Source of the DNA: an uncultured Alphaproteobacteria bacterium
GTDB taxonomy: Bacteria; Pseudomonadota; Alphaproteobacteria; Rhodobacterales; Rhodobacteraceae
Length of the DNA: 64,000 bases
Direction of reading: 5' to 3'
Assembly (NCBI GenBank): GCA_902574225.1
Contig: CACGMO010000005.1
Location: 4,736-68,735 of the forward strand
Positions within the stretch are counted from its first letter, which is position 1, and every line of letters begins with the position of its first letter. A model generated the notes under the pieces. The model searched no databases and was not told the origin of the DNA. It saw only the letters and a program-made list of their open reading frames with translations. Position numbers and translations under genes: made by a program. Shown one piece after another: positions 40,795 to 62,733 of the stretch.

Positions 40795-41673
40795 ATGGAC
40801 ATTGACAAAAAAGTTAATATTTTAGTTATTGGTGGCGCGGGCTTCGTAGGAAGCCATTTGTGTGAATCATTAATATCAAATAAAATATACAACGTGATAT
40901 CTATCGATAATTATTCTAGTGGAACGGTTGATAATCATACATCTGGCGTCACATATATTGAAGGAGATACCAGAACTTTAGATGAAGTTAACTTACCAAA
41001 ATTTGATTATGTTTATCATTTAGGGGAATATTCTAGAGTTGAAAATAGTCTAGAGCAAGTTGACCAAGTTATTGACAATAATATCGTAGGTTTAACCAAG
41101 GTTTTAAAGTTTTGTTATTTTTCGAATGCTAAATTAATTTATGCAGGTAGTAGTACTAAATTCGGTGATGATGGAAAAACAATTAACGAAACCCCTTATG
41201 CTCTCACCAAATGGATTAATACCGAATTGATTTATAATTACTGTACTTGGATGGATCTAGAGTTTTGTATCTCATATTTTTATAATGTATACGGTCCCCG
41301 TGAAAATGAGGACGGTAAATTTGCCACGGTATTGGGAATATTCAAACGCAGATATATTTTGGGACAGCCTATGCCAGTCGTTAGACCTGGCACTCAAAGA
41401 CGGAATTTTACACATGTTAATGATATTGTTTCCGGATTAATTCTTCTGTTAAAAGCTCCATCAGGAGATGGATATGGAATTGGAGCTGAGGAAGATTTTA
41501 GTATCATCGACATTGCAAAACTATTTTCAGAAAATATAGAATTACTACCCGCAAGAAAAGGCAATAGACTTGGTTCTTCTTTGGTGAATTCCAAAATTAA
41601 AGAGCTTGGTTGGAAGCAAAAACATCAATTGCGTGATTACATACATGATATAAAGCATAATTTGGAAAAATGA
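40795..41673 (+). CDS. NAD-dependent epimerase/dehydratase family protein (extended SDR)
   Basis: ILVIGGAGFVGSHL Rossmann motif, YALTK catalytic YxxxK. 292 aa. Substrate not assignable by eye. Confidence 0.75.
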   Translation: MDIDKKVNILVIGGAGFVGSHLCESLISNKIYNVISIDNYSSGTVDNHTSGVTYIEGDTRTLDEVNLPKFDYVYHLGEYSRVENSLEQVDQVIDNNIVGLTKVLKFCYFSNAKLIYAGSSTKFGDDGKTINETPYALTKWINTELIYNYCTWMDLEFCISYFYNVYGPRENEDGKFATVLGIFKRRYILGQPMPVVRPGTQRRNFTHVNDIVSGLILLLKAPSGDGYGIGAEEDFSIIDIAKLFSENIELLPARKGNRLGSSLVNSKIKELGWKQKHQLRDYIHDIKHNLEK

Positions 41674-42395
41674 TTGTACTAGTTTTAGCAGGAGGATTGG
41701 GGAAGCGTTTGAGGTCTGTTATTCAGGATGTACCAAAGCCCATGGCTCCAGTGGGCAAATATCCATTTCTTTATTTTGTATTATCTGAATTAGTATCGAG
41801 TCCCATAATTACAAAAATAGTAATTAGCGTTGGATATAAGTCAGAAAAAGTATCTAGCTACTTTGGCAGTCAGTTCAAAGGTATCCCTATAAAGTATTGT
41901 AAGGAAGTTAGCCCACTAGGCACTGGAGGTGCTATTAAAAATTTTGTGACTAACATGAAAATCAAAAGTCCCTTTTTTGTAAAAAACGGTGACACATTTT
42001 TTAAGTCTAATTATACCGATTTAAAGGTAGCGCAGGATTTGTTTAAGCCCAAAATAATCTTGGAAGCATGTAAAGTAGAAAAGTTAGATAGATATGGATC
42101 ATTAGAATTAGAGACTATTGATAGAAAAAGAAGATTAGCTCTGATATTAAAATTCAAAGAGAAAGATCAAAGCGCTAAAAATGGATATATAAATTCTGGT
42201 TGTTACCTCATGGACCCCCACATTTTTGATAAATATCCAAAAAGAAAATTTTCCCTCGAAGAGGATATACTTACCCCGTTTTCAATAGAGAGAGATATTT
42301 ATGCTATCAAGTCTAAAGAAAAAGAGTTTATAGATATTGGAATACCATCGGACTTTTACGCAGCGCAAAAATTACTACCAAAGTGGAGTCTTTAA
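41670..42395 (+). CDS. hddC: D-glycero-alpha-D-manno-heptose 1-phosphate guanylyltransferase-like nucleotidyltransferase
   Basis: MIVLVLAGGLGKRLRSVIQDVPKPMAPV...VISVGYKSEKVSSYFG matches the HddC pattern. Clustered with hddA/gmhA/gmhB homologs. Confidence 0.7.
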   Translation: MIVLVLAGGLGKRLRSVIQDVPKPMAPVGKYPFLYFVLSELVSSPIITKIVISVGYKSEKVSSYFGSQFKGIPIKYCKEVSPLGTGGAIKNFVTNMKIKSPFFVKNGDTFFKSNYTDLKVAQDLFKPKIILEACKVEKLDRYGSLELETIDRKRRLALILKFKEKDQSAKNGYINSGCYLMDPHIFDKYPKRKFSLEEDILTPFSIERDIYAIKSKEKEFIDIGIPSDFYAAQKLLPKWSL

Positions 42396-42396
42396 C

Positions 42397-43332
42397 ATGA
42401 AAAACATCTTGATTACTGGCGGGGCTGGTTACATTGGATCAGTGTTAACGGAAACTTTATTAAACAAAGGCTATAAGGTAACGGTTGTTGATCTCTTTGA
42501 CCAACTCGAAAGTTCGTTATCATATGCAGCGCAATACAAAAACTTTAGTGCAAAGAGACTAGATGTCCTTGATGCCAAGAAACTGAGAGAATTCTGCACG
42601 CCTTTTGACGTTATCATTCCTTTAGCCGCTCTCGTAGGCGCTCCTTTATGTGAAAGACACGAAGTTTTAGCAGAATTGATAAATTATAAAAGTATTGCAA
42701 ATATATTAGAAACAAAAAAAAGCGATCAATTAATTATTTACCCAAATACAAATAGTGGATACGGAAAAATGACTGATAATGAGGACTTTTGCACCGAAGA
42801 GAGTCCCCTTAACCCTATTTCAGTTTATGGTGAAACAAAGGTCCGAGCTGAAAAAGACATTATCAATAGCGGAGGAATTGCATTTCGTCTAGCTACAGTT
42901 TTTGGGAGTAGTTATAGGATGCGTACCGACTTGATGGTTAATGAGTTTGTGTATAAGGCAGTTAAAGAGAAGTGTGTCGTCTTGTTTGAGAGTCACTTCA
43001 GAAGAAACTTTATTCATGTAAGAGATGTTTGCAAAGCATTTATACATGCTATTGAAAACTCTTCTTCCATGAGTGGGGAAGTATACAACTTGGGTCTTTC
43101 GAGTGCCAATTATACAAAGAAACAACTTTGTTTAAAAATTAAAGAGCAAGTAAAAAGCTTCGTTATTATTGAAAATGACATTAGTCTGGATCCTGACAAG
43201 CGCGATTATCTGGTTAGCAATGAGAAATTAGAAGCAACAGGTTGGTCACCTGATCACAGCATAGAAAGTGGTATAGCAGAACTTATAAAATATTATGAAA
43301 CATTTGCACCAATTAAAACCGCAAACGTCTAA
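42397..43332 (+). CDS. NAD-dependent epimerase/dehydratase family protein (SDR) inside the heptose gene set
   Basis: ILITGGAGYIGSVL, YGETK (YxxxK). The ATG at 42397 lies right after the hddC stop. The track ORF begins at 42337. Confidence 0.75.
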   Translation: MKNILITGGAGYIGSVLTETLLNKGYKVTVVDLFDQLESSLSYAAQYKNFSAKRLDVLDAKKLREFCTPFDVIIPLAALVGAPLCERHEVLAELINYKSIANILETKKSDQLIIYPNTNSGYGKMTDNEDFCTEESPLNPISVYGETKVRAEKDIINSGGIAFRLATVFGSSYRMRTDLMVNEFVYKAVKEKCVVLFESHFRRNFIHVRDVCKAFIHAIENSSSMSGEVYNLGLSSANYTKKQLCLKIKEQVKSFVIIENDISLDPDKRDYLVSNEKLEATGWSPDHSIESGIAELIKYYETFAPIKTANV

Positions 43333-44325
43333 ATGAGTGGTGCTATGATTTTGTCTTCAGCCCCACTAAGAATTAGCTTTTTTGGTGGTGGAACAGACTA
43401 TCCCAGTTACTATAAGAAGTACGGTGGTAAGGTTATTTCAACTGCTATAGATAAATATGTGCACGTAATCCTAAAGAATAAAGCCCCTTTTAACGAAGAG
43501 AAATTCATTTTGTGCTATTCGTCCATTGAAAAGTGCAATTCAATAGATGAGATCAAACACCCTGGAATTCGAGCAACCCTTAGTTATCTCAAATTTCAAA
43601 AACCTTTAGAGATGCACATTATAGGCGATATTCCAGCAAAAACTGGATTGGGCTCATCATCTTGCTTTACGGTAGCTCTTCTGAAAGCTCTTTATACATA
43701 TATGGGTGAAAAAAGGAGCCAACGTGAGATTGCATTTGATGCGATGCGGATAGAACAAAGCTTAATGAATGATAATGTTGGCAGTCAAGATCAATATGCG
43801 TCGGCAATCGGTGATCTAAACGAAATCATTTTTGCTACTACTGGCGAAATTACCCACACTGCTCTGAATTTACCCTTGGAAATTGAAAGTGAGTTTTTTT
43901 CCTCTTTATATTTGTGCTTTACGGGCGTCAAACGATTAGCGTCAAATGTTGCTTTAGAACAAATCAATAAAATTGAGAATGGCTCCATAGATCAACAGAC
44001 ACATGAGCTTTCACAAATAGCAAAAGCTGCTCTGGTTGCCTTAAAAAACCATAATCTTCACGAGTTTGCTCACCTTTTAAATGAAACATGGAAAGTAAAA
44101 CGACTGTTAACTAATAAAATCTCAAATAAAGAAATTGATGAAATATACGAGCATGGGATCAACTGTGGTGCAACTGGAGGAAAATTATTAGGCGCAGGCG
44201 GTGGAGGCTTCTTTTTGTTTTTCGTTCCAATCTCAAAAAAACTAGAATTTGAGACAAGTTACCGCGCAGGAACCTTTCTTCAAGTAAATAAATGCAAAAA
44301 AGGTGTAGTGGCCAAATTAATATAG
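43333..44325 (+). CDS. hddA: D-glycero-alpha-D-manno-heptose 7-phosphate kinase-like GHMP kinase
   Basis: SAPLRISFFGGGTDYPSYY, GHMP motif PAKTGLGSSSCFTVAL, GAGGGGFFLFF. 330 aa. Confidence 0.75.
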   Translation: MSGAMILSSAPLRISFFGGGTDYPSYYKKYGGKVISTAIDKYVHVILKNKAPFNEEKFILCYSSIEKCNSIDEIKHPGIRATLSYLKFQKPLEMHIIGDIPAKTGLGSSSCFTVALLKALYTYMGEKRSQREIAFDAMRIEQSLMNDNVGSQDQYASAIGDLNEIIFATTGEITHTALNLPLEIESEFFSSLYLCFTGVKRLASNVALEQINKIENGSIDQQTHELSQIAKAALVALKNHNLHEFAHLLNETWKVKRLLTNKISNKEIDEIYEHGINCGATGGKLLGAGGGGFFLFFVPISKKLEFETSYRAGTFLQVNKCKKGVVAKLI

Positions 44326-44361
44326 TTATTTTAGAATTATGATGAAAGTTAACTTTTAGAA

Positions 44362-45354
44362 ATGAAAATTCTACTTCTCAATAGAGGTTTTAATGATTAC
44401 TTAGCTGATGGAGTATTTCATGGGTTCCGAACAATGTTTGGAAGTGATGTTATTGATTATCCAAGATGTGACTGGATGTATGAAGATTTTTCCGAAGTTG
44501 ATAAATTACATGGTAAAGGATTTTCATTATACAGAACGTTGAAATCCATAAAAATTGATAGATACAATATTTATGAAAAGGTAAGAAATAGCTACTTTGA
44601 CCTAATAGTTTTTGGAAGTATTCATGATACATTTGGAACATACTTTCAGTTGTTTCCCTATCTAAAAAAAAATAGTGTCATTTTTTTAGATGGTAACGAC
44701 CACCCTGCACCATTCCCCTTCCACGGTTATTTTTGGAGAACCTTCAGAAATCTTTGTGTACCAAAAGTAAGTAACAACTTTTTATATTTTAAACGAGAAT
44801 GGACACCGGAAACAACTTTTTACAGATATTACAAGGTTATGCCAAAGTCTATCTTAAATTATCTGCCGAACCTAGCAAACTATAGAAAAATAAATTTCGG
44901 CTTTCCATCTGAAAAAATTATAAAGGTTCTACCTAAGAAATCGAAATTATTCAATACGCATATCGTAGACCCTGAAGTTAAGCAAAATATAAAGGGAGCA
45001 AGCCTTGACTATGCATTTGCTGCAGAAAAAGATTATTACAATGATCTTAAGGCTTCAAAATTTGGTATAACGACTAAGAAAGGAGGTTGGGATTGCATGC
45101 GCCACTATGAAATTGCAGCTAATGGAACAGTTCCATGTTTCAGAGATTTGGATAAAAAACCAGATAGCTGTGCTCCACATGGGTTCGATAGTACAAATTC
45201 GATCACCTACAGCTCTTACCACGATCTTTTAGGAAAAATATCTTCTATATCAGATGAAGAGTATGCTTCATTACAATCCGGAGCACTAAAATGGATTAAA
45301 GGTCAAACCACGGTGAACATAGCAAAAAAAATATTAAAGGAGCAAGGCATTTAG
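44362..45354 (+). CDS. Hypothetical protein, possible GT-B/exostosin-like glycosyltransferase
   Basis: No family recognised with certainty. The C-terminal SKFGITTKKGGWDCMRHYEIAANGTVPCF resembles the exostosin/GT-B motif S.F.L.P.G....R..EA...G.IP. Confidence 0.35.
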   Translation: MKILLLNRGFNDYLADGVFHGFRTMFGSDVIDYPRCDWMYEDFSEVDKLHGKGFSLYRTLKSIKIDRYNIYEKVRNSYFDLIVFGSIHDTFGTYFQLFPYLKKNSVIFLDGNDHPAPFPFHGYFWRTFRNLCVPKVSNNFLYFKREWTPETTFYRYYKVMPKSILNYLPNLANYRKINFGFPSEKIIKVLPKKSKLFNTHIVDPEVKQNIKGASLDYAFAAEKDYYNDLKASKFGITTKKGGWDCMRHYEIAANGTVPCFRDLDKKPDSCAPHGFDSTNSITYSSYHDLLGKISSISDEEYASLQSGALKWIKGQTTVNIAKKILKEQGI

Positions 45355-45426
45355 CTTTTAAATCTGTAAATTTTTTTGAACTTAAAACGAAGAAAAATTT
45401 TATTTTTCGAAAGTTGAAATTATTAT

Positions 45427-46005
45427 ATGATTATCAAATTGAATGATACTATTCCTTTGAAGGGGAAAAAATTTATCTTCCTTGACAGAGACGGCACTAT
45501 AAATGTCGAAAGAAACTATTTGTATGAAATTTCAAAATTCGAATTCGAGTATAAAGCTGTGGAGGGTCTGATATCTCTTGCAAGCCAAGATTTCAATTTA
45601 ATTATTATAACCAATCAATCTGGTATCGGACGCGGGTATTACACAATCAAAGACTTCACCATGTTACAATCGTACATTATCAGAAAGTGTTCTAGTTATG
45701 GGGTTGAATTTCTGGGTTATGTTGCATGTCCGCACTATAAGGAGAATTGTGAATGTAGAAAGCCAAAAGACGGCATGTTGCGTGCTATTCAGGAACGCTT
45801 TGAAATTGATAAAGAGTATTCTTGGATCGTTGGCGATAAAGTCTCAGATACAGAAACAGGACGATCACTAGGGTACCAGTCCTGCTTATTAGGTACCGGC
45901 CATGGTAAAAATAATTTTGAACATAAATCTGATAATACATACTTTGTTAAAAATTTGAGTGAATTTGCTAATTTGGTTAGGAAAACAAATGAAAGACTTT
46001 ATTAA
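45427..46005 (+). CDS. gmhB: D,D-heptose 1,7-bisphosphate phosphatase
   Basis: HAD motif FLDRDGTIN, TNQSGIGRGY, Zn-finger insert CPHYKENCECRKP, GDKVSD. 192 aa. Confidence 0.88.
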   Translation: MIIKLNDTIPLKGKKFIFLDRDGTINVERNYLYEISKFEFEYKAVEGLISLASQDFNLIIITNQSGIGRGYYTIKDFTMLQSYIIRKCSSYGVEFLGYVACPHYKENCECRKPKDGMLRAIQERFEIDKEYSWIVGDKVSDTETGRSLGYQSCLLGTGHGKNNFEHKSDNTYFVKNLSEFANLVRKTNERLY

Positions 46006-46561
46006 CAAAATAAACGCACACCATGATGCTCTTTCAAGGCTTAAAGATGATCTCGAGCTTCAGGAAACTCTCCATGATTTGATAGATAAAATAGTACTAG
46101 CTTTAAGTAAAGATAATAAATTAATGATTTGCGGTAATGGAGGCTCGGCTGCTGATGCGCAACATATGGCGGCAGAGTTTATTGGAAGATTTGCATTCGA
46201 TAGTCGTCCTCTACCAGCTCTTACTCTGACAAGCGATACTTCTACTATTACCTGTATAGCCAATGATTATAAATTTGAAGATATCTTTAAACGCCAGATC
46301 GAGGGATTAGGAAGAGAAGGCGACATAATTCTAGGTATTTCAACTAGCGGTGCCTCTGAAAACATTCTACGTGCTCTTGAAAAGGCAAGAGATATGAATA
46401 TCACAACAGCTATTTTGACAAGCACTAAGGCAAATTTAGAGAAATTAATTTGCAACTATGCAATTAAAGTCGAAGCTTCAAATACTGCAACAATACAAGA
46501 AATGCATCTAATTATCGAACACTATATATGCGAACAGGTTGAACTTAGGCTCTGTGGATAA
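45989..46561 (+). CDS. gmhA: Phosphoheptose (sedoheptulose-7-phosphate) isomerase
   Basis: SIS domain with GNGGSAADAQHMAAEF, GISTSGASENI. The ATG at 45989 overlaps the gmhB end. The track ORF begins at 45959. Confidence 0.9.
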   Translation: MKDFINKINAHHDALSRLKDDLELQETLHDLIDKIVLALSKDNKLMICGNGGSAADAQHMAAEFIGRFAFDSRPLPALTLTSDTSTITCIANDYKFEDIFKRQIEGLGREGDIILGISTSGASENILRALEKARDMNITTAILTSTKANLEKLICNYAIKVEASNTATIQEMHLIIEHYICEQVELRLCG

Positions 46562-47975
46562 AATAATTAAAAGCAACTCAAAACGCATTTTGGTAATTGG
46601 AGATGTGATGTTAGATCATAACGTCATTGGAGATGTAACTCGGATAAGCCCCGAAGCTCCTGTTCCAATTTTCAATAGCTTTAAGGAGACTTTTAAACTT
46701 GGCGGAGCAGCTAATGTTGCCGCAGGAATTAAAAAATTAGGGTGTGATACTGATATATATTTTGACGCCGCGAAAGATGATGGAACTCCGGAGTTAACAA
46801 AATCTCTGAAAAAGTTGGGGATAGGTTTCAAACTGATCCAAAGTAAACAAATAACCACAATTAAACGTCGATTTTTTGTTGGTTCACAACAGGTTTTTAG
46901 ATCAGATAATGAAATCTATAGTCCGGTTCAGTCTTCAACCATTTTAAATAATATTAAAAAAGACTATAGAAATAATTTGCCCGAGTTATGTGTTTTATCT
47001 GATTACTCAAAAGGAGTCCTTTCTGACAGTGAGAACATTATTGCTGGTTTACGGCAACTTGGGGTTAAATCAATAGTGGATCCCAAAAGCTCAAAAATTC
47101 AAAAATACAAAGGCGCATGGATTTTGAAACCAAACTGGAAAGAATTCAATGCGTTTTTTAAACAAGATATTGAGATAAATAATTTACCTCATTTTGGAAA
47201 AAAAATGTGCGAAGATAATGATATTGAAAATCTGATAATCACTTTGGGTTCAAAAGGCATTTTTTATATTAATAAATCGGGTTCTACTTTTCATATAGAG
47301 ACAAAAGCCAAGGAGGTTTTTGATGTTACAGGAGCAGGAGATACTGTAATTGCCACTGTAGCTTATTTTATCAATCAGGGAATAAGCATACCTCAATCAA
47401 TTGAATTGGCAAATTATGCTGCCTCCTTCACAGTGGCAAATATAGGCACTTATAATGTAACTTTAGAAGAAATAAGATTAAAGGCTGAAAAAGGGAGTAT
47501 AAGAGAAAAGACTTTTTCAAAAATTACTGATCTTATTGAGTCAATTAGGGCAAAAGGAAGAAAGATAGTGTTTACAAATGGCTGTTTTGATATATTACAT
47601 CCTGGCCACATTGACATTTTAAATTTTTGTAAAAAACAAGGAGATTTTGTAGTAGTTGGTCTTAATTCAGATAAGTCTGTTAAAGAAATTAAAGGTCAGA
47701 ACAGGCCGATAAATAGTTTTCAGATTAGAAAAAAGCTTTTACAGAACTTAAGGGCTGTTGATCTTGTTGTTGAATTTGACAGTAAGACTCCTCTTGAATT
47801 AATTAAAAATATTAAGCCCGATATTTTAATTAAGGGAGGCGATTATAAAGTTGATGAAGTGGTGGGAGCAGATTTTGTAAATAGTTACGGAGGCGAAATT
47901 ATTATATTTGAATTTGTCAATAATACCTCGACCACTAAAGAGCTGGCAAAAATCAGGAAACTTGGAGATGATTAA
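46539..47975 (+). CDS. hldE: Bifunctional D-beta-D-heptose 7-phosphate kinase / D-beta-D-heptose 1-phosphate adenylyltransferase
   Basis: Ribokinase-like N-domain (ILVIGDVMLD, TGAGDTV) fused to a cytidylyltransferase-like C-domain (FTNGCFDILHPGHIDIL). 478 aa. TTG at 46539 or GTG at 46554 is the start. Confidence 0.88.
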   Translation: MNLGSVDKIIKSNSKRILVIGDVMLDHNVIGDVTRISPEAPVPIFNSFKETFKLGGAANVAAGIKKLGCDTDIYFDAAKDDGTPELTKSLKKLGIGFKLIQSKQITTIKRRFFVGSQQVFRSDNEIYSPVQSSTILNNIKKDYRNNLPELCVLSDYSKGVLSDSENIIAGLRQLGVKSIVDPKSSKIQKYKGAWILKPNWKEFNAFFKQDIEINNLPHFGKKMCEDNDIENLIITLGSKGIFYINKSGSTFHIETKAKEVFDVTGAGDTVIATVAYFINQGISIPQSIELANYAASFTVANIGTYNVTLEEIRLKAEKGSIREKTFSKITDLIESIRAKGRKIVFTNGCFDILHPGHIDILNFCKKQGDFVVVGLNSDKSVKEIKGQNRPINSFQIRKKLLQNLRAVDLVVEFDSKTPLELIKNIKPDILIKGGDYKVDEVVGADFVNSYGGEIIIFEFVNNTSTTKELAKIRKLGDD

Positions 47976-48201
47976 GATTGATATAGAAGTTGTAGAATAC
48001 GCTATTTTTGAGTCACTCAAAAAAGAACACTTAAAAGATGTAAATTTTATTTCTTTAGAATTACATTACATCGGTGTCACTAACGCTATGAAGAGTTTTA
48101 AATCGAAACTCTATTCTTTTGGAAATAGATTTCTTGTAAAACCAGATAGCTGGGGACGATCTGGTTTAGGACAATTATGGGCAAGAAAGGACGATTGTTG
48201 A
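47968..48201 (+). pseudogene. Possible remnant of an FkbM-family methyltransferase (C-terminal fragment only, 77 codons)
   Basis: MIKIDIEVVEYAIFESLKKEHLKDVNFISLELH resembles the FkbM C-terminal block (LKIDIEGAE..VL.G....I..I.IE.H). There is no SAM-binding N-domain. It overlaps the hldE stop and the next gene's start. Confidence 0.35.
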
Positions 48202-49103
48202 AAATCCTTGTTACAGGTGCAAGTGGCTTTTTAGGGCAAGCATTTGTTGAAAAAGCAAAGTTGAAAAACCTTGATATTTTTGCTCCTTCATCAAAGGATT
48301 TGAATTTACTGCATCCAATAAGACCTGATATGATAGGAAAAAAATTTGATGTTATAATACATTTCGCCAGTTGGACAAGAGCAGGAGATTTTTGTAGAAC
48401 ACATAAATTAGAACAATGGCTTGTGAATGAAAAAATAAATCTAAATATTATTGATTATTGGGTTAATTATCAGAGGGAAGCGCATCTTATAAGTTTTGGG
48501 ACTAGTGTTTGCTACAACGATGATGACACGGTAAAATTGGAAAAAAATTATTTAAAAAATGACCCTATTGATGATTATTATGGTTACTCTACAACAAAAA
48601 GATCACTTATTTATGGTATCAAATGTGCCTCTCAGCAGTTTTCTTTAAGTTTTTCTCACTATGTGCCATCAACCATATATGGACCAGGCTATCATCTTGA
48701 TGGACGCCAGATGCACTTTGTTTATGATATAATACGTAAATTAGTGATTGCTAAGAAAGAAAATCGCGAAGTTGTTTTGTGGGGCAATGGATATCAGGAG
48801 CGAGAACTTATCTTTATCGATGATGTAACAGATATTCTTTTCAGGTCGTTGTCAAGTCCGACCAATCAAATCATTAATTTGTCTTCTGGGAGAGGCTTTA
48901 CAATCCGAGAGCTAGCCAATTCAATTTGTGAAATTATTAATTTCCCTCCCTCAGATATTAGCTATGATACTGACGCCTTTACTGGATTTAAATCAAAAAT
49001 ACTGTCAAATACAATTCTTGACGATATCTTTCCTGATCGGAAAAAAACTGATCTAGTATCTGGTTTGCGTCCCACTATAAAGTGGGTGAGTGAGAACTTT
49101 TAG
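48177..49103 (+). CDS. GDP-4-keto-6-deoxy-sugar epimerase/reductase family protein (GDP-L-fucose synthase-like SDR)
   Basis: ILVTGASGFLG, SSKDLNLLHP, YGYSTTK, VVLWGNGYQERELIFIDDV parallel E. coli Fcl/WcaG blocks. 308 aa. Confidence 0.75.
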   Translation: MGKKGRLLKILVTGASGFLGQAFVEKAKLKNLDIFAPSSKDLNLLHPIRPDMIGKKFDVIIHFASWTRAGDFCRTHKLEQWLVNEKINLNIIDYWVNYQREAHLISFGTSVCYNDDDTVKLEKNYLKNDPIDDYYGYSTTKRSLIYGIKCASQQFSLSFSHYVPSTIYGPGYHLDGRQMHFVYDIIRKLVIAKKENREVVLWGNGYQERELIFIDDVTDILFRSLSSPTNQIINLSSGRGFTIRELANSICEIINFPPSDISYDTDAFTGFKSKILSNTILDDIFPDRKKTDLVSGLRPTIKWVSENF

Positions 49104-49119
49104 ATGAGAGGATTTAGTT

Positions 49120-49689
49120 ATGTTTTACAAAGATCATAGTTGGAGTGAATTTGCTAAAAGTTATTTAAGAACATTTGGCCAAGAAGTACCAATTTATCAA
49201 CCTGCGGTCTTCAGAGAATTTAGGGGTGAAATTTTTACAACTTTTCATGACAAATATCATCCAGCAATGTCCAAAATTGGAAAAACAGATAATACTCATG
49301 TAAGATTTTCTAACTCTCGAGCTGGCGTTTTACGGGGATTACATTATGACTTTTCAACTTGGAAACTTGTTCAAGCTCTTGTAGGAGAGATATACCTCGT
49401 TGTCTTAGATATGCGAAAAAAGTCGGCAACCTACGGAAAATGGGAACACTACTTGCTGTCAAACAAAACGCGGGATCAAGTGCTTATTCCTCCAGGGTTT
49501 GCAAACGGTCACTTAGCCCTGGAGGAATGTATCTTTCACTATATTCTATTCTACAAGGGCAAATATACCGATGAGAAAAAACAAGGTGTGGTCGCTTACA
49601 ATGATCCACGTTACTCTATCCAGTGGCCTGATACAAATTTCATAGTTCAAGAAAGAGATAAGACAACATCCGAAATCAATAACAGCTAG
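49120..49689 (+). CDS. RmlC-like cupin sugar-nucleotide 3,5-epimerase
   Basis: FRGEIFTTF, RGLHYD, KLVQALVGEIYLVVLDMRK, IPPGFANGH match the dTDP-4-dehydrorhamnose 3,5-epimerase fold family. 189 aa. Confidence 0.8.
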   Translation: MFYKDHSWSEFAKSYLRTFGQEVPIYQPAVFREFRGEIFTTFHDKYHPAMSKIGKTDNTHVRFSNSRAGVLRGLHYDFSTWKLVQALVGEIYLVVLDMRKKSATYGKWEHYLLSNKTRDQVLIPPGFANGHLALEECIFHYILFYKGKYTDEKKQGVVAYNDPRYSIQWPDTNFIVQERDKTTSEINNS

Positions 49690-49722: not shown

Positions 49723-50676
49723 ATGAAAATACTAATTACCGGTGGAAATGGATTCCTAGGAAAGAGATTGGGAAAAGCACTGCACGATCGAAAGCATCAG
49801 GTGACATTAGCATCCCGTAACAATAAAAATAATCTTCTTGCTTCACAAATGACGGGATGTCAGGTCTTGGCGATGGATATCACTTCAATAGAATCTGTTA
49901 GGGATATAGTGAACCAAACTGAACCAGATTTAATAATTCACGGAGCGGCAACAAAATTTGTTGACATAGCTGAGAAACAACCCCTGGAAACAATTGATGT
50001 TAACGTAATTGGGTCTCAAAATATTGCAAGAGTAGCAATTGACAAAGGTATATCTTCTGTCATCGGAATATCAACTGACAAGGCGTCGCCTCCGGTACGG
50101 AACATATACGGGATGTCCAAATCTTTAATGGAACGTTTATATTGTGGGCTTAATGGGAGAGGAGGTGTTCAGTTTGCCTGCGTACGATACGGAAACGTAG
50201 CATGGTCAACCGGTTCAGTATTAAGTATATGGAGAAAAATGGTAAAGGAAAAGATGGAGATTGGGACTACGGGACCCGAAATGTATAGATATTTTTTTAC
50301 CGTTAATGAAGCAGTTGATCTGGTAATTACTGCAATTGAGAATATACATGAGATAGCTGGAAAAGTTCTAAGTCGTGAAATGAAAGCAGCACAGCTCAAA
50401 GATATAATTTCTGTTTGGATGGAGTCTGACAAAAGAATTTCTGTGAAGAGTTTGCCTGAAAGGCCTGGGGAAAGAATAGAAGAATACTTAATCGGTGAAG
50501 AAGAGCTTTCAAAAACATATTCTAAAAGATTTAATGGAATTGAACACTATATTTTTAATTTCAACACTGACGTTGAGAACCCTGTTCAGGAAGTACACAC
50601 TTCAAGAACTGCAATCAAATTAACTAATGAAGAAATTTTAAATATAATAAATAACCCTCCCACAGAAGAACTATAA
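49723..50676 (+). CDS. Polysacc_synt_2 (CapD/PseB/FlaA1-like) nucleotide-sugar 4,6-dehydratase
   Basis: ILITGGNGFLGKRL, STDKASPPVRNIYGMSKSLMERL, VRYGNVAWSTGSV parallel H. pylori FlaA1/PseB blocks. 317 aa. Confidence 0.75.
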   Translation: MKILITGGNGFLGKRLGKALHDRKHQVTLASRNNKNNLLASQMTGCQVLAMDITSIESVRDIVNQTEPDLIIHGAATKFVDIAEKQPLETIDVNVIGSQNIARVAIDKGISSVIGISTDKASPPVRNIYGMSKSLMERLYCGLNGRGGVQFACVRYGNVAWSTGSVLSIWRKMVKEKMEIGTTGPEMYRYFFTVNEAVDLVITAIENIHEIAGKVLSREMKAAQLKDIISVWMESDKRISVKSLPERPGERIEEYLIGEEELSKTYSKRFNGIEHYIFNFNTDVENPVQEVHTSRTAIKLTNEEILNIINNPPTEEL

Positions 50677-51341
50677 TGTTCAAAAATGCTTTAATTATGG
50701 CAGCAGGTAGAGGTAATCGTATGAGACCTCTTACAGATGTGACTCCGAAAGCACTTGCACCACTAAAGGGTAGCACTCTGATTGAGCAAACTATCGATAA
50801 ACTACATAAAGAAGGTATTTCAACACACGTTACGGTTGGGTATCTTGGAAATATAATTGCCGAGACTCTAATTAGAAAAAACATAGTTTCTTCCATAATC
50901 AATACTGATGGATACGATAACGGATGGTGGATTTTCAACACACTTATTAGTAAAATCAATGAACCAATACTCGTTATGACCTGCGATAATGTTACGGACC
51001 TAGATCTAGATTTCATGCAGAGTGAATATAGCAGATTGAACGCACCTGCATGTATGTTAGTTGGTGTTGAACCAATAATAGGAGTAGAAGGTGACCTAAT
51101 AGAGCATAAAGATAATTTGGTTACAAATATTTCTCGTAATAATTCTGGGAAGACATATGCTTCAGGAATACAAGTTATTAATCCTGTTTCTTGTAACATG
51201 CTTATTAAGAATTCAGAAAATTTTTCATTGATTTGGTCGCAATTAATTGAAAAAAACCAATTATATGTGACAAATATTTATAAAAGGTCTTGGTTCTCAA
51301 TTGATACACTAGACCAATTGGTCAAACGTAATGAAGAGTAA
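50676..51341 (+). CDS. Sugar-phosphate nucleotidyltransferase (specificity unknown)
   Basis: IMAAGRGNRMRPLTDVTPKALAPL G-rich NTP-transferase motif. 221 aa. TAATG overlap with the upstream gene. Confidence 0.75.
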   Translation: MFKNALIMAAGRGNRMRPLTDVTPKALAPLKGSTLIEQTIDKLHKEGISTHVTVGYLGNIIAETLIRKNIVSSIINTDGYDNGWWIFNTLISKINEPILVMTCDNVTDLDLDFMQSEYSRLNAPACMLVGVEPIIGVEGDLIEHKDNLVTNISRNNSGKTYASGIQVINPVSCNMLIKNSENFSLIWSQLIEKNQLYVTNIYKRSWFSIDTLDQLVKRNEE

Positions 51342-59985: not shown

Positions 59986-61083
59986 ATGATGAGTAAAGTA
60001 GCTTTAATTTCTGGGATAACGGGACAAGATGGCTCTTACCTTGCAGAACTATTATTGGATAAAGGATATGTTGTTCACGGAATAAAAAGAAGAAGTTCCT
60101 CTTTTAATACAATGCGAATTGATCACTTGTACGAGGATCCACATGATGGTAAGAGCAATTTTTATCTTCACTATGGAGATTTAACTGATACATCCAATAT
60201 ATACAATTTAGTCCGAGATATTCAACCTGATGAAATTTACAATTTAGCTGCACAAAGCCATGTGGGGGTAAGTTTTTCTACTCCCGAGTATACTGCAGAA
60301 GTCGATGCCCTTGGTACGCTACGGTTTTTAGAAGCAATAAGATCATGTAACTTAGTAGAAAAAACGCGGTTCTATCAAGCCTCTACCTCTGAATTATATG
60401 GTCTTGTACAAGAGACTCCTCAAAGGGAGACCACTCCTTTTCATCCCCGCTCCCCATATGCGGTAGCAAAACTTTATGCTTATTGGATTACGATTAACTA
60501 TAGGGAAGCGTACAATATATACGGGTGCAATGGTATTCTTTTCAATCACGAAAGTCCAAGACGAGGCGAGACATTTGTAACCAGAAAGATTACCCGGGCA
60601 ATTGCGAGAATTGTCATCGGTCTTGAAAGTTGTGTTTATTTGGGTAAATTAAGTTCGAAGCGTGATTGGGGGCATGCAAGGGATTATGTTGAAATGCAAT
60701 GGCTGATGCTTCAGCAGGAACAACCAAAAGATTTCGTAATTGCTACCGGGCAACAGTATTCAGTCCGGGAATTTGTTACATGGTGTTGTGAGGAGCTAGA
60801 AATTGATATTCACTTTGAGGGTAGCGGACTAAAGGAAATTGGAGTAGTAAAAAAGGTTCCAAAAAGGTTTTCGACCACACTTAAAAAAGAACAAATAATA
60901 GTCCGAGTTGACCCAAAATATTATCGACCGGCTGAGGTCGAGACGTTGCTAGGCGATGCGTCTCTTGCAAGGCAAGAGCTTGGGTGGAAGCCAAAGATTA
61001 CCGCTAGAGAGCTTTGTTCGGAAATGCTTGCCTCTGACCTGAGTGAGGCCACTAAAAGTAAAAACTATGGAAATGACCCTTAA
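59986..61083 (+). CDS. gmd: GDP-mannose 4,6-dehydratase
   Basis: [57 protein letters not shown]. 365 aa. Confidence 0.93.
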
Positions 61084-61842: not shown

Positions 61843-62733
61843 ATGAAAATACTTGTAACTGGGTCTTCAGGTTTTATCGGAAATGCAATCTGTAAAACAC
61901 TATCAGAATGCGGATACGAAGTGTCAAATTTGGACCGGTCCCGTTTTCAATTAGATCCGTCATCAGCAAATAACGTTTTAGAAAATTGTAATGTAGTAAT
62001 ACATTGTGCTGGAATCGCTCATACAAAGTTGACTAAAAATATAAAAATGATAAGAGAGGTCTATAACGCAAACGTAGAATTTACTAAGAAACTTTACAAA
62101 AAATCAATGATCGCTGGAGTACAACATTTTATTTTTCTGAGTAGTTCAAAAGTATATGGCGCTTTTTCAAGAAAAGGTATTGTCTTTAACGAGCTTGACA
62201 ATTTAGAGCCAGAAGACGTATATGCACGCAGTAAGCTCCTTGCCGAAACGGCAATAATAAGTATTCCTCAAAAAAAAAAAATTAAATACACAATTTTACG
62301 TTTGCCTTTAACCTACAGCGAGAGGAATAAGGCAAATATGAATAAATTAGAAAAATTGGTAAATGTCGGCTTACCACTACCTTTTGCAGAGATCGGAAAT
62401 AAAAGGAGTCTTATAAACCTTAATAATCTGACCGAATTCATTCGCTTGATATGTTTAAACTCTAAATCATATAATCAGATATTTAATGTCTGTGATGATC
62501 GCTCGATTTCCACACCTGAATTGGTCAAATTGCTTGCAAATACATCTAGAAAACGTCTAATTCTATTTAGATTAAATAATAAACTTTTTTTGTGGCTTTC
62601 AAAAATTATAGGGATGCAAGCAGAATATAACGCACTCTGGAATTCTTTTGAGATAGATAATACCAAATCAAAAAAAGTTTTAAACTGGAGACCGAGATAC
62701 AGTTTATTCGATGTCTTCAAGAAGGTGCAATAG
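61843..62733 (+). CDS. NAD-dependent epimerase/dehydratase (UDP-sugar 4-epimerase-like SDR)
   Basis: ILVTGSSGFIGNAI, YARSKLLAE (YxxxK). 296 aa. Confidence 0.75.
   Translation: MKILVTGSSGFIGNAICKTLSECGYEVSNLDRSRFQLDPSSANNVLENCNVVIHCAGIAHTKLTKNIKMIREVYNANVEFTKKLYKKSMIAGVQHFIFLSSSKVYGAFSRKGIVFNELDNLEPEDVYARSKLLAETAIISIPQKKKIKYTILRLPLTYSERNKANMNKLEKLVNVGLPLPFAEIGNKRSLINLNNLTEFIRLICLNSKSYNQIFNVCDDRSISTPELVKLLANTSRKRLILFRLNNKLFLWLSKIIGMQAEYNALWNSFEIDNTKSKKVLNWRPRYSLFDVFKKVQ

Follow-up and report, generated by a model that had tools for sequence, protein, structure and literature searches.

The genes at positions 41670-46561 and 48177-49689 of the analysed window, a stretch of 64,000 nucleotides, are rather likely to encode a route for the synthesis and remodelling of GDP-heptose. 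In the proposed scheme an HddC-like protein (41670-42395) would supply GDP-heptose, the pathway substrate, and an SDR (42397-43332) would oxidise it at C4 to the 4-keto-heptose with O6 kept. An RmlC-fold cupin (49120-49689) would then epimerise C3, or C3 and C5, after which an Fcl-like SDR (48177-49103) would reduce C4 using NAD(P)H. The route is predicted to yield a GDP-D-glycero-heptose with a configuration other than manno and with the 6-hydroxyl retained, and a glycosyltransferase of the same island would then attach it to a surface polysaccharide. The substrates, cofactor use and order of steps given here are deduced from homology, catalytic residues, phylogeny and gene neighbourhood. An earlier note on this DNA had placed the Fcl-like SDR and the RmlC-like cupin in a GDP-heptose modification route beside hddC, gmhA and hddA, and both gene neighbourhood and phylogeny agree with that placement. 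The same note had described the genome as alphaproteobacterium-like, which is consistent with its NuoF, 75% identical to NuoF of Rhodobacteraceae.

Heptose genes and the candidate entry enzyme

The ORFs at 48177-49103, 49120-49689, 42397-43332 and 59986-61083 were confirmed on the + strand at these coordinates, with profile matches strong enough not to be due to chance. Upstream of the reductase/cupin pair, profile search detected genes for HddC-like, HddA-like, GmhB, GmhA and HldE proteins. The HddC-like protein (41670-42395, + strand), which is predicted to make GDP-heptose, has NF049965 as its top family (173.6 bits; cut-off of 300 not reached) and shares 38% amino acid sequence identity with HddC of the Campylobacter jejuni locus referred to here as L098. 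The HddA-like GHMP kinase (D-glycero-D-manno-heptose-7-phosphate 1-kinase; 43333-44325, + strand) matches NF049969 best (155 bits, E 2.5e-45; cut-off of 600 not reached) and is 30% identical to C. jejuni HddA. The failure of both HddC and HddA to reach their NCBIfam cut-offs counts against the pathway. GmhB, the heptose-1,7-bisphosphate 7-phosphatase (45427-46005, + strand; 154 bits to NF006506, 129 bits to NF050049), is common to the GDP-heptose and ADP-heptose branches. GmhA, the sedoheptulose-7-phosphate isomerase (45959-46561, + strand), scores 177.5 bits against TIGR00441 and shares 46% identity with its C. jejuni counterpart; its coordinates are those of the ORF as listed, and the real start may be located further downstream. 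A search of the genome for HldD yielded nothing above the cut-off. The scan of the 40.4-52.8 kb region for promoters and terminators revealed no informative terminator-like site on the + strand in the intergenic stretches of 40.9-52.8 kb; promoter-like sites in the scanned region were no commoner than in shuffled sequence, and operon boundaries are not given by the scan.

The SDR encoded at 42397-43332 (+ strand), a proposed GDP-heptose C4-dehydrogenase, was aligned by phmmer to PDB entries 6vo6/6vo8 with 348 bits and E 3e-103; the alignment covers 299 residues, of which 56.5% are identical, and contains few gaps. The next-best PDB match reached just 70 bits. The alignment to 6vo6 also favours the start at 42397 over an alternative at 42337. 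The 6vo6 protein, which we take to be Cj1427, is 96% identical in sequence to a 313-aa C. jejuni SDR which occupies the place of Cj1427 among the capsule heptose genes, and the synteny in C. jejuni agrees with this assignment. The gene order in L098 is cupin, Fcl-like SDR, 6vo6-like SDR, HddA, GmhA and HddC. The window SDR shares 54.8% identity with the 313-aa SDR of that locus and is flanked by HddC-like and HddA-like genes in a similar neighbourhood. About 4.8 kb (hldE and a 200-bp gap included) lie between the Cj1427-like gene and the reductase/cupin pair, a distance which speaks against the pathway.

Cj1427 (MlghA) is an alpha-ketoglutarate-dependent GDP-heptose C4-dehydrogenase which starts the C. 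jejuni route (PMC10680097, PMC7949155); its tightly bound NADH is recycled by alpha-ketoglutarate in a ping-pong mechanism (PMC10680097). The SDR at 42397-43332 is probably a homologue of this enzyme, in which case the route would be entered via C4 oxidation with O6 kept, and not via Gmd-like 4,6-dehydration. Since the likely entry enzyme is a Cj1427 homologue, the expected product is an epimerised D-glycero-heptose carrying O6 rather than a 6-deoxy-heptose. The earlier note had listed this gene simply as another SDR.

The cupin and the Fcl-like reductase family

The cupin (49120-49689, + strand; 189 aa) matches PF00908 with 121 bits over residues 22-186 and the rmlC model TIGR01221 with 110 bits, short of the cut-off of 155.75. 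The first eight of its PDB matches are without exception heptose epimerases of C. jejuni (108-127 bits), whereas dTDP RmlC enzymes score no more than 82 bits. The C3/C5 enzymes (122-127 bits) score above the C3-only ones (108-114 bits), a difference that is slight and not decisive. Amino acid identity of the cupin is 41.5-41.8% with the C. jejuni epimerases, 32.5% with Escherichia coli RfbC and 28% with the RmlC of its own genome. In the phylogenetic test that the earlier note had set for this protein, the cupin groups with MlghB, DdahB and Cj1430 and apart from canonical RmlC: a clade of 17 members with support of 100/99 unites 13 reductase-adjacent cupins with four C. jejuni enzymes and excludes E. 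coli RfbC as well as the RmlC of the genome itself. That the cupin might itself serve as the RmlC of this genome was ruled out by the rmlBDAC set located on contig C29.

In DdahB/MlghB numbering, His67, Lys74, Tyr134 and Asp173 are catalytic and Asn121 binds O4 (PMC7949155); all of these residues are identical in the window cupin in a phmmer alignment to 7an4. The heptose-pocket residues Ile56 and His123 are Ser and Phe in RmlC (PMC7949155). In the cupin the equivalent of His123 is His, that of Ile56 is Ser, as in RmlC, and Tyr132 is replaced by Phe; the latter two substitutions count against the pathway. The cupin is proposed to be a GDP-4-keto-heptose C3 or C3/C5 epimerase.

The gene situated 16 bp upstream of the cupin (48177-49103, + strand) encodes an Fcl-like SDR of 308 aa with a PF01370 domain. 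Its top NCBIfam match is GDP-L-fucose synthase NF047922, with 92.2 bits against a cut-off of 500, and it shares 22-27% identity with Fcl. This low score, together with the loss of Cys109 and the presence of a separate canonical Fcl, ruled it out as a true Fcl. Orthology with MlghC, DdahC or Cj1428 was ruled out by sequence identity, profile scores and the tree. The protein is 24% identical over 195 residues (41 bits) to the Cj1428-like protein of L098, and a profile of the reductase family scores 149 bits with human Fcl and 130 bits with E. coli Fcl, but 81-97 bits with MlghC, DdahC and Cj1428. The Cj1428-like protein, itself 39% identical to E. coli Fcl, groups with canonical Fcl (support 100), and the reductase family forms a clade of its own apart from that group. 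The earlier suggestion that the C. jejuni enzyme set is present here holds for the cupin and fails for the reductase. Because its identity to the Cj1428-like reductase is so low, gene neighbourhood is the one guide to the substrate of the window enzyme, a point against the pathway.

The reductase keeps the Thr/Ser-Tyr-Lys triad and the equivalent of His179 (His180). Where Fcl has GSSC109 it has GTSV111, so that Val111 replaces the epimerase Cys109. DdahC (T110/H180) and MlghC (Y108/R180), which are reductases only, also lack this Cys (PMC7949155). The product of 48177-49103 is probably a C4-reductase, with reductase activity only, belonging to a distinct and uncharacterised family of Fcl-like SDRs.

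The reductase family gave 409 genomic matches, the best 80 of which cover at least 16 phyla, and its distribution spans bacteria and some DPANN archaea; Polynucleobacter sp. MWH-UH23A, for example, has a homologous locus with a Cys-type member. Among the 41 family loci flanked by 5 kb or more on each side, a Cj1427-like gene was found in 34, HddA likewise in 34 and HddC in 26. The position of Fcl Cys109 is occupied by Cys in all well-flanked loci without an adjacent cupin (51/51) and by Val or Ala in every member with one (13/13, the window gene included). A free tree set one cupin-paired member, L047, apart from the others. Independent origins of Cys loss and cupin pairing were nevertheless dropped, as the likelihood was better with all 13 members together (p-AU 0.947); the pattern is a single evolutionary event and represents one observation, not 13 independent ones. 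The subclade that has lost the epimerase Cys invariably has a cupin alongside, so that in the window locus one protein seems to epimerise and another to reduce. At somewhat less than even chances, the family as a whole finishes GDP-4-keto-heptoses made by Cj1427-type dehydrogenases. Most members, which have Cys and His and no cupin, would then be bifunctional epimerase/reductases, the heptose counterparts of Fcl, and one subclade, 48177-49103 included, would have lost the Cys and passed epimerisation to a recruited cupin.

The probable fucose branch and rival explanations

The Gmd homologue (59986-61083, + strand) scores 568 bits with TIGR01472 (cut-off 415) and has E. coli Gmd, with which it shares 68.6% identity, as its top PDB match (1db3, 580 bits). 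A canonical Fcl, 62.5% identical to that of E. coli and with GSSC and the SHV dyad intact, is located about 600 bp beyond the end of the window (window-equivalent 64614-65576). Judged by these similarities, Gmd and the canonical Fcl most likely constitute a separate GDP-fucose branch. Since the genome harbours both of these and the rmlBDAC set, the reductase/cupin pair is not needed for either fucose or rhamnose, and the alternative of the earlier note, in which Gmd and the Fcl-like enzyme make GDP-L-fucose, becomes unnecessary. Gmd was also set aside as the heptose dehydratase of the main route, since, with an Fcl of its own, it resembles an ordinary Gmd.

The earlier note had cast Gmd as a DmhA/WcbK-type entry enzyme. 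If Gmd were a GDP-heptose 4,6-dehydratase of the DmhA/DdahA/WcbK type, the cupin and the reductase would make a 6-deoxy-heptose from its product; the Gmd, cupin and reductase types do occur in one island, the Gmd family includes the C. jejuni heptose dehydratases (PMC10680097), and sequence alone leaves room for heptose activity of Gmd. However, the close resemblance to E. coli Gmd, with a score above the family cut-off, the 11 kb separating Gmd from the reductase/cupin pair and the canonical Fcl at the end of the island make this reading highly improbable, the more so as a close Gmd homologue (55-64% identity) is present in just 5 of 83 related loci, compared with 34 of 41 for the Cj1427-like gene. 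It is extremely unlikely that the pair acts, with no heptose involved, on Gmd-made GDP-4-keto-6-deoxy-mannose to give a second GDP-6-deoxyhexose (e.g. 6-deoxy-L-talose or fucose). Fcl enzymes are indeed the nearest characterised relatives of the reductase, and the C. jejuni heptose enzymes show weak activity on mannose-derived substrates (PMC7949155), but an intact canonical Fcl is at hand, the reductase family travels with heptose genes and not with Gmd, and the reductase combines its low identity to Fcl with the lack of the epimerase Cys.

A different set of partners is found directly downstream of the cupin, where a PseB/CapE-like 4,6-dehydratase (49723-50676) is followed by a nucleotidyltransferase of 221 aa (50676-51341) which overlaps the end of the PseB-like gene; that these could partner the reductase and cupin instead is a point against the heptose pathway. 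The four proteins would then make a 6-deoxy-L-hexose or hexosamine, as in a split CapE/CapF-type route. The genes are almost contiguous, with a gap of 33 bp between the cupin and the PseB-like gene in addition to the 16 bp and the overlap already mentioned, and in a Polynucleobacter locus (L006) homologous dehydratase (64%) and nucleotidyltransferase (49%) genes come directly after a reductase homologue. Yet a PseB-like gene occurs in only 3 of the 83 related loci, where it is window-like in one (64%) and 30-32% identical in the others, and the conserved partners of the reductase family are the Cj1427-like, HddA and HddC genes. Given, moreover, that the cupin falls in the GDP-heptose epimerase clade and that the WbjC/CapF-type model NF047837 is absent from the NCBIfam matches of the reductase at E <= 1e-5, we regard this arrangement as improbable and retain the heptose-remodelling route as the preferred reading.

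Significance and comparison with known systems

In the literature searched, the C4-oxidation/epimerisation/reduction route to unusual heptoses has been worked out in C. jejuni only, a food pathogen which remodels GDP-heptose for its capsule; interest in the route there concerns virulence and drug targeting. The window locus and its relatives suggest that heptose remodelling is widespread in free-living bacteria, here with a different, unstudied reductase family. Members with Cys and no cupin and members with Val and a cupin offer a ready structure-function contrast, which bears on transitions between a single bifunctional enzyme of the Fcl type and a split pair of the RmlC/RmlD type, and the enzymes could serve in making rare GDP-heptoses. 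If the family does finish GDP-4-keto-heptoses, environmental surface glycans would commonly contain non-manno D-glycero-heptoses; to our knowledge, such sugars have so far been known mainly from Campylobacter capsules.

In the 6-deoxy-heptose pathways of C. jejuni, Yersinia and Burkholderia, a 4,6-dehydratase (DdahA/DmhA/WcbK) is followed by an epimerase and/or a reductase. The proposed route shares with them its precursor, GDP-manno-heptose, and the cupin family to which DdahB belongs, but the only Gmd-family gene resembles an ordinary Gmd with Fcl and bears no mark of a heptose-specific 4,6-dehydratase. In dTDP-L-rhamnose synthesis, too, the work is divided between a cupin, the 3,5-epimerase RmlC, and an SDR acting after it, the 4-reductase RmlD, although the window cupin belongs to a different clade from the genome's RmlC (28% identity), which is encoded with the rest of its set on contig C29. 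With Fcl (GFS, GMER), its best-scoring characterised relative, the window reductase shares the extended-SDR fold, the triad and the His179 equivalent, whereas its conserved genomic partners are the Cj1427-like and heptose genes instead of Gmd, and Cys109 has given way to Val. Like DdahC and MlghC, it lacks the Fcl epimerase Cys (Val111/His180) and is paired with a cupin.

In C. jejuni NCTC 11168 (HS:2), D-glycero-L-gluco-heptose is made by the C4-dehydrogenase Cj1427 (MlghA), the C3/C5-epimerase Cj1430 (MlghB) and the C4-reductase Cj1428 (MlghC), encoded beside hddC, gmhA and hddA (PMC10680097, PMC7949155). The system described here differs in its host, a free-living alphaproteobacterium of marine type, in the presence of hldE in the operon and in a reductase that is not orthologous (24% identity, own clade). 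It resembles HS:2 in logic and neighbourhood, with identities of 38% for HddC, 30% for HddA, 46% for GmhA, 55% for the C4-dehydrogenase and 41.5% for the cupin.

Gene content of the island

From position 40795 to the end of the window the plus strand carries a single, tightly packed run of sugar-nucleotide and glycosyltransferase genes, and HMM scans bore out all those that the earlier note had named. HddC-like (41670-42395) and HddA-like (43333-44325) genes, with an SDR gene (42397-43332) between them, are accompanied by GmhB, GmhA and HldE (46539-47975), an Fcl-like extended SDR (48177-49103; NF047922, 92 bits, cut-off 500), an RmlC-fold cupin (49120-49689; PF00908, 121 bits; TIGR01221, 110 bits, cut-off 155.75) and a bona fide Gmd (59986-61083; TIGR01472, 568 bits, cut-off 415), all in plus orientation. 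The 330-aa ORF situated between hddA and gmhB (44362-45354) has no match in Pfam or NCBIfam and no homologue detectable by tblastn in 83 related loci. Nowhere in the genome, which is 88% complete, did an ADP-heptose 6-epimerase (TIGR02197) score above cut-off, and a 292-aa SDR (40795-41673; 76 bits against 274.6) came closest; ADP-heptose may be left in the D,D form, or this SDR may be a divergent epimerase.

The assembly comprises 2.09 Mb, with ∼35% G+C in the window, and its NuoF shares 75% identity with that of Rhodobacteraceae, which fits an uncultured alphaproteobacterium. The reductase encoded at 48177-49103 was not found in 18 genomes of the same genus or 12 remoter relatives, all of them incomplete MAGs, so that its absence is weak evidence. 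It is consistent with a surface-glycan island that is variable and was acquired by horizontal transfer.

Entry enzyme and cupin

The SDR at 42397-43332 matches PDB 6vo6/6vo8 with 348 bits (E 3e-103, 56.5% identity, hardly any gaps), the second-ranked structure scoring 70 bits. Entry 6vo6, which we take to be the C4-dehydrogenase Cj1427, was checked indirectly by C. jejuni sequence match and gene order: a C. jejuni cluster of 439 members has a representative with 96% identity to its sequence, and the C. jejuni contig carrying the 6vo6-like gene reads cupin, two small ORFs, Fcl-like SDR, 6vo6-like SDR, gap, HddA, GmhA, HddC, the Cj1430-to-Cj1423 order. In C. jejuni the product of the dehydrogenase is the next substrate of cupin epimerases and C4-reductases, and the island probably encodes a heptose route of this Cj1427 type.

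The eight best solved-structure matches of the cupin (7an4, 7ang, 7ani, 7m14, 8dco, 8db5, 8dcl, 8dak; 108-127 bits) are all C. jejuni GDP-heptose epimerases, the first three being DdahB and MlghB entries (PMC7949155), whereas dTDP RmlC structures reach at most 82 bits. In the alignment, with residue roles taken from PMC7949155, the cupin keeps the equivalents of His67, Lys74, Asn121, Tyr134, Asp173 and the heptose-pocket His123, differing at two positions (Ile56 to Ser, Tyr132 to Phe). A maximum-likelihood tree unites it with 12 reductase-adjacent cupins of other genomes and the C. jejuni enzymes (support 100/99), with E. coli RfbC and the RmlC of this genome outside; together with its two closest relatives, the cupin forms the sister group of the C. 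jejuni enzymes (93/96). Phylogeny had been proposed in the earlier note as a check, and this placement favours the heptose reading.

The reductase family

The reductase shares 22.5% identity with E. coli Fcl, 27% with the genome's own Fcl and only 24%, over 195 residues, with the Cj1428-like reductase, and has numerous homologues at 40-63%. A profile of 25 homologues scored human Fcl at 149 bits, E. coli Fcl at 130 and C. jejuni reductases at 81-97. Tree reconstruction sets the family apart as a clade and places the Cj1428-like protein, which shares 39% identity with E. coli Fcl, with canonical Fcl (support 100). The reductase is a member of a distinct, widespread, uncharacterised family: a relative is encoded at 409 loci when each prokaryotic species is represented by a single genome, and the top 80 of these come from at least 16 phyla, among them Planctomycetota, Chlamydiota, Acidobacteriota, Pseudomonadota, Bacteroidota and DPANN archaea. 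Members occur in three Candidatus Micrarchaeota contigs (L038, L071, L082; DPANN MAGs), L082 additionally having Cj1427-like, HddC-like and GmhA-like genes.

In the 41 loci flanked by 5 kb or more on either side, a Cj1427-like gene (identity of 40% or higher) and an HddA homologue were each found in 34, and an HddC homologue in 26; three more contigs show a Cj1427-like/heptose neighbourhood. The conserved context of the family is therefore GDP-heptose plus C4-dehydrogenase.

C3/C5 epimerisation by Fcl uses Cys109 as base and His179 as acid, and DdahC (T110/H180) and MlghC (Y108/R180), without the Cys, have reductase activity only (PMC7949155). The His179 equivalent is invariant across the family. 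Where no cupin is adjacent, all 51 well-flanked loci have Cys at the Cys109 position; all 13 loci whose cupin is no more than 1 kb away have Val (12, including the window with its GTSV111 motif) or Ala (one). Three Cys-type loci have cupins 1.4-8.7 kb away, none of which belongs to the heptose clade. Without constraint, the tree shows 12 of the 13 Cys-less members as a clade nested among Cys-type members, and constraining all 13 as one clade gave a higher likelihood (p-AU 0.947). They are best explained as one clade, and therefore by a single event combining loss of the epimerase Cys with recruitment of a cupin. Judged from sequence, this pattern suggests a reductase-only function for the enzyme in the window and possible bifunctionality of the Cys-type members.

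Competing routes and relation to C. jejuni

Gmd shares 68.6% identity with its E. coli counterpart, whose structure (1db3) is also its top structural match. The island closes just past the window end with a Bac_transf-type initiating sugar transferase (window-equivalent 63906-64592; contig C5:68641-69327) and a canonical Fcl (64614-65576; C5:69349-70311; 62.5% identical to E. coli Fcl, GSSC and SHV motifs intact), beyond which genes are unrelated, and contig C29 carries a full rmlBDAC set. Both GDP-fucose and dTDP-rhamnose therefore have a source of their own, and the cupin/reductase pair is needed for neither. Two genes past Gmd, a 296-aa SDR (61843-62733) with weak family matches (GalE 64 bits, RmlD 48 bits) may act as a reductase on the Gmd product, giving a second GDP-6-deoxyhexose. 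A Gmd-fed 6-deoxyhexose route for the pair is very improbable. Hardly more credible is the 6-deoxy-heptose route through Gmd put forward in the earlier note; no feature demands Gmd activity on heptose. The broader proposal of that note, a pathway to a modified heptose, is supported; as to mechanism, C4 oxidation by a Cj1427 homologue, with retention of O6, should take the place of the one then proposed.

On the strongest rival reading, itself still unlikely, the cupin and reductase would work for the short PseB/CapE-like SDR and MurU-like nucleotidyltransferase immediately downstream (49723-51341). Both are conserved in Polynucleobacter sp. MWH-UH23A (64% and 49%), where they follow the reductase; however, they are missing from nearly all other reductase loci, and this link is not repeated in the other 80-odd, whereas the heptose link is. 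The Polynucleobacter locus (L006:2630-13689, CP099572.1) is syntenic with the window, reading HldE, HddC-like, unknown ORF, HddA, Cj1427-like, second nucleotidyltransferase, sugar C-methyltransferase (Methyltransf_13/14), Cys-type reductase, PseB-like SDR, 221-aa nucleotidyltransferase and GT4 genes. It has no cupin, and its product may be a C-methylated heptose.

A protein search with 6vo6 returned at least 7,997 clustered proteins at E ≤ 1e-60, among the matches listed being Helicobacter proteins of up to 83% identity and one Bacillota protein of 67%; Cj1427-type dehydrogenases therefore reach well beyond Campylobacter. Identities between the proteins of the window and those of the C. jejuni locus are 38% (HddC), 55% (Cj1427), 30% (HddA), 46% (GmhA) and 41.5% (cupin).
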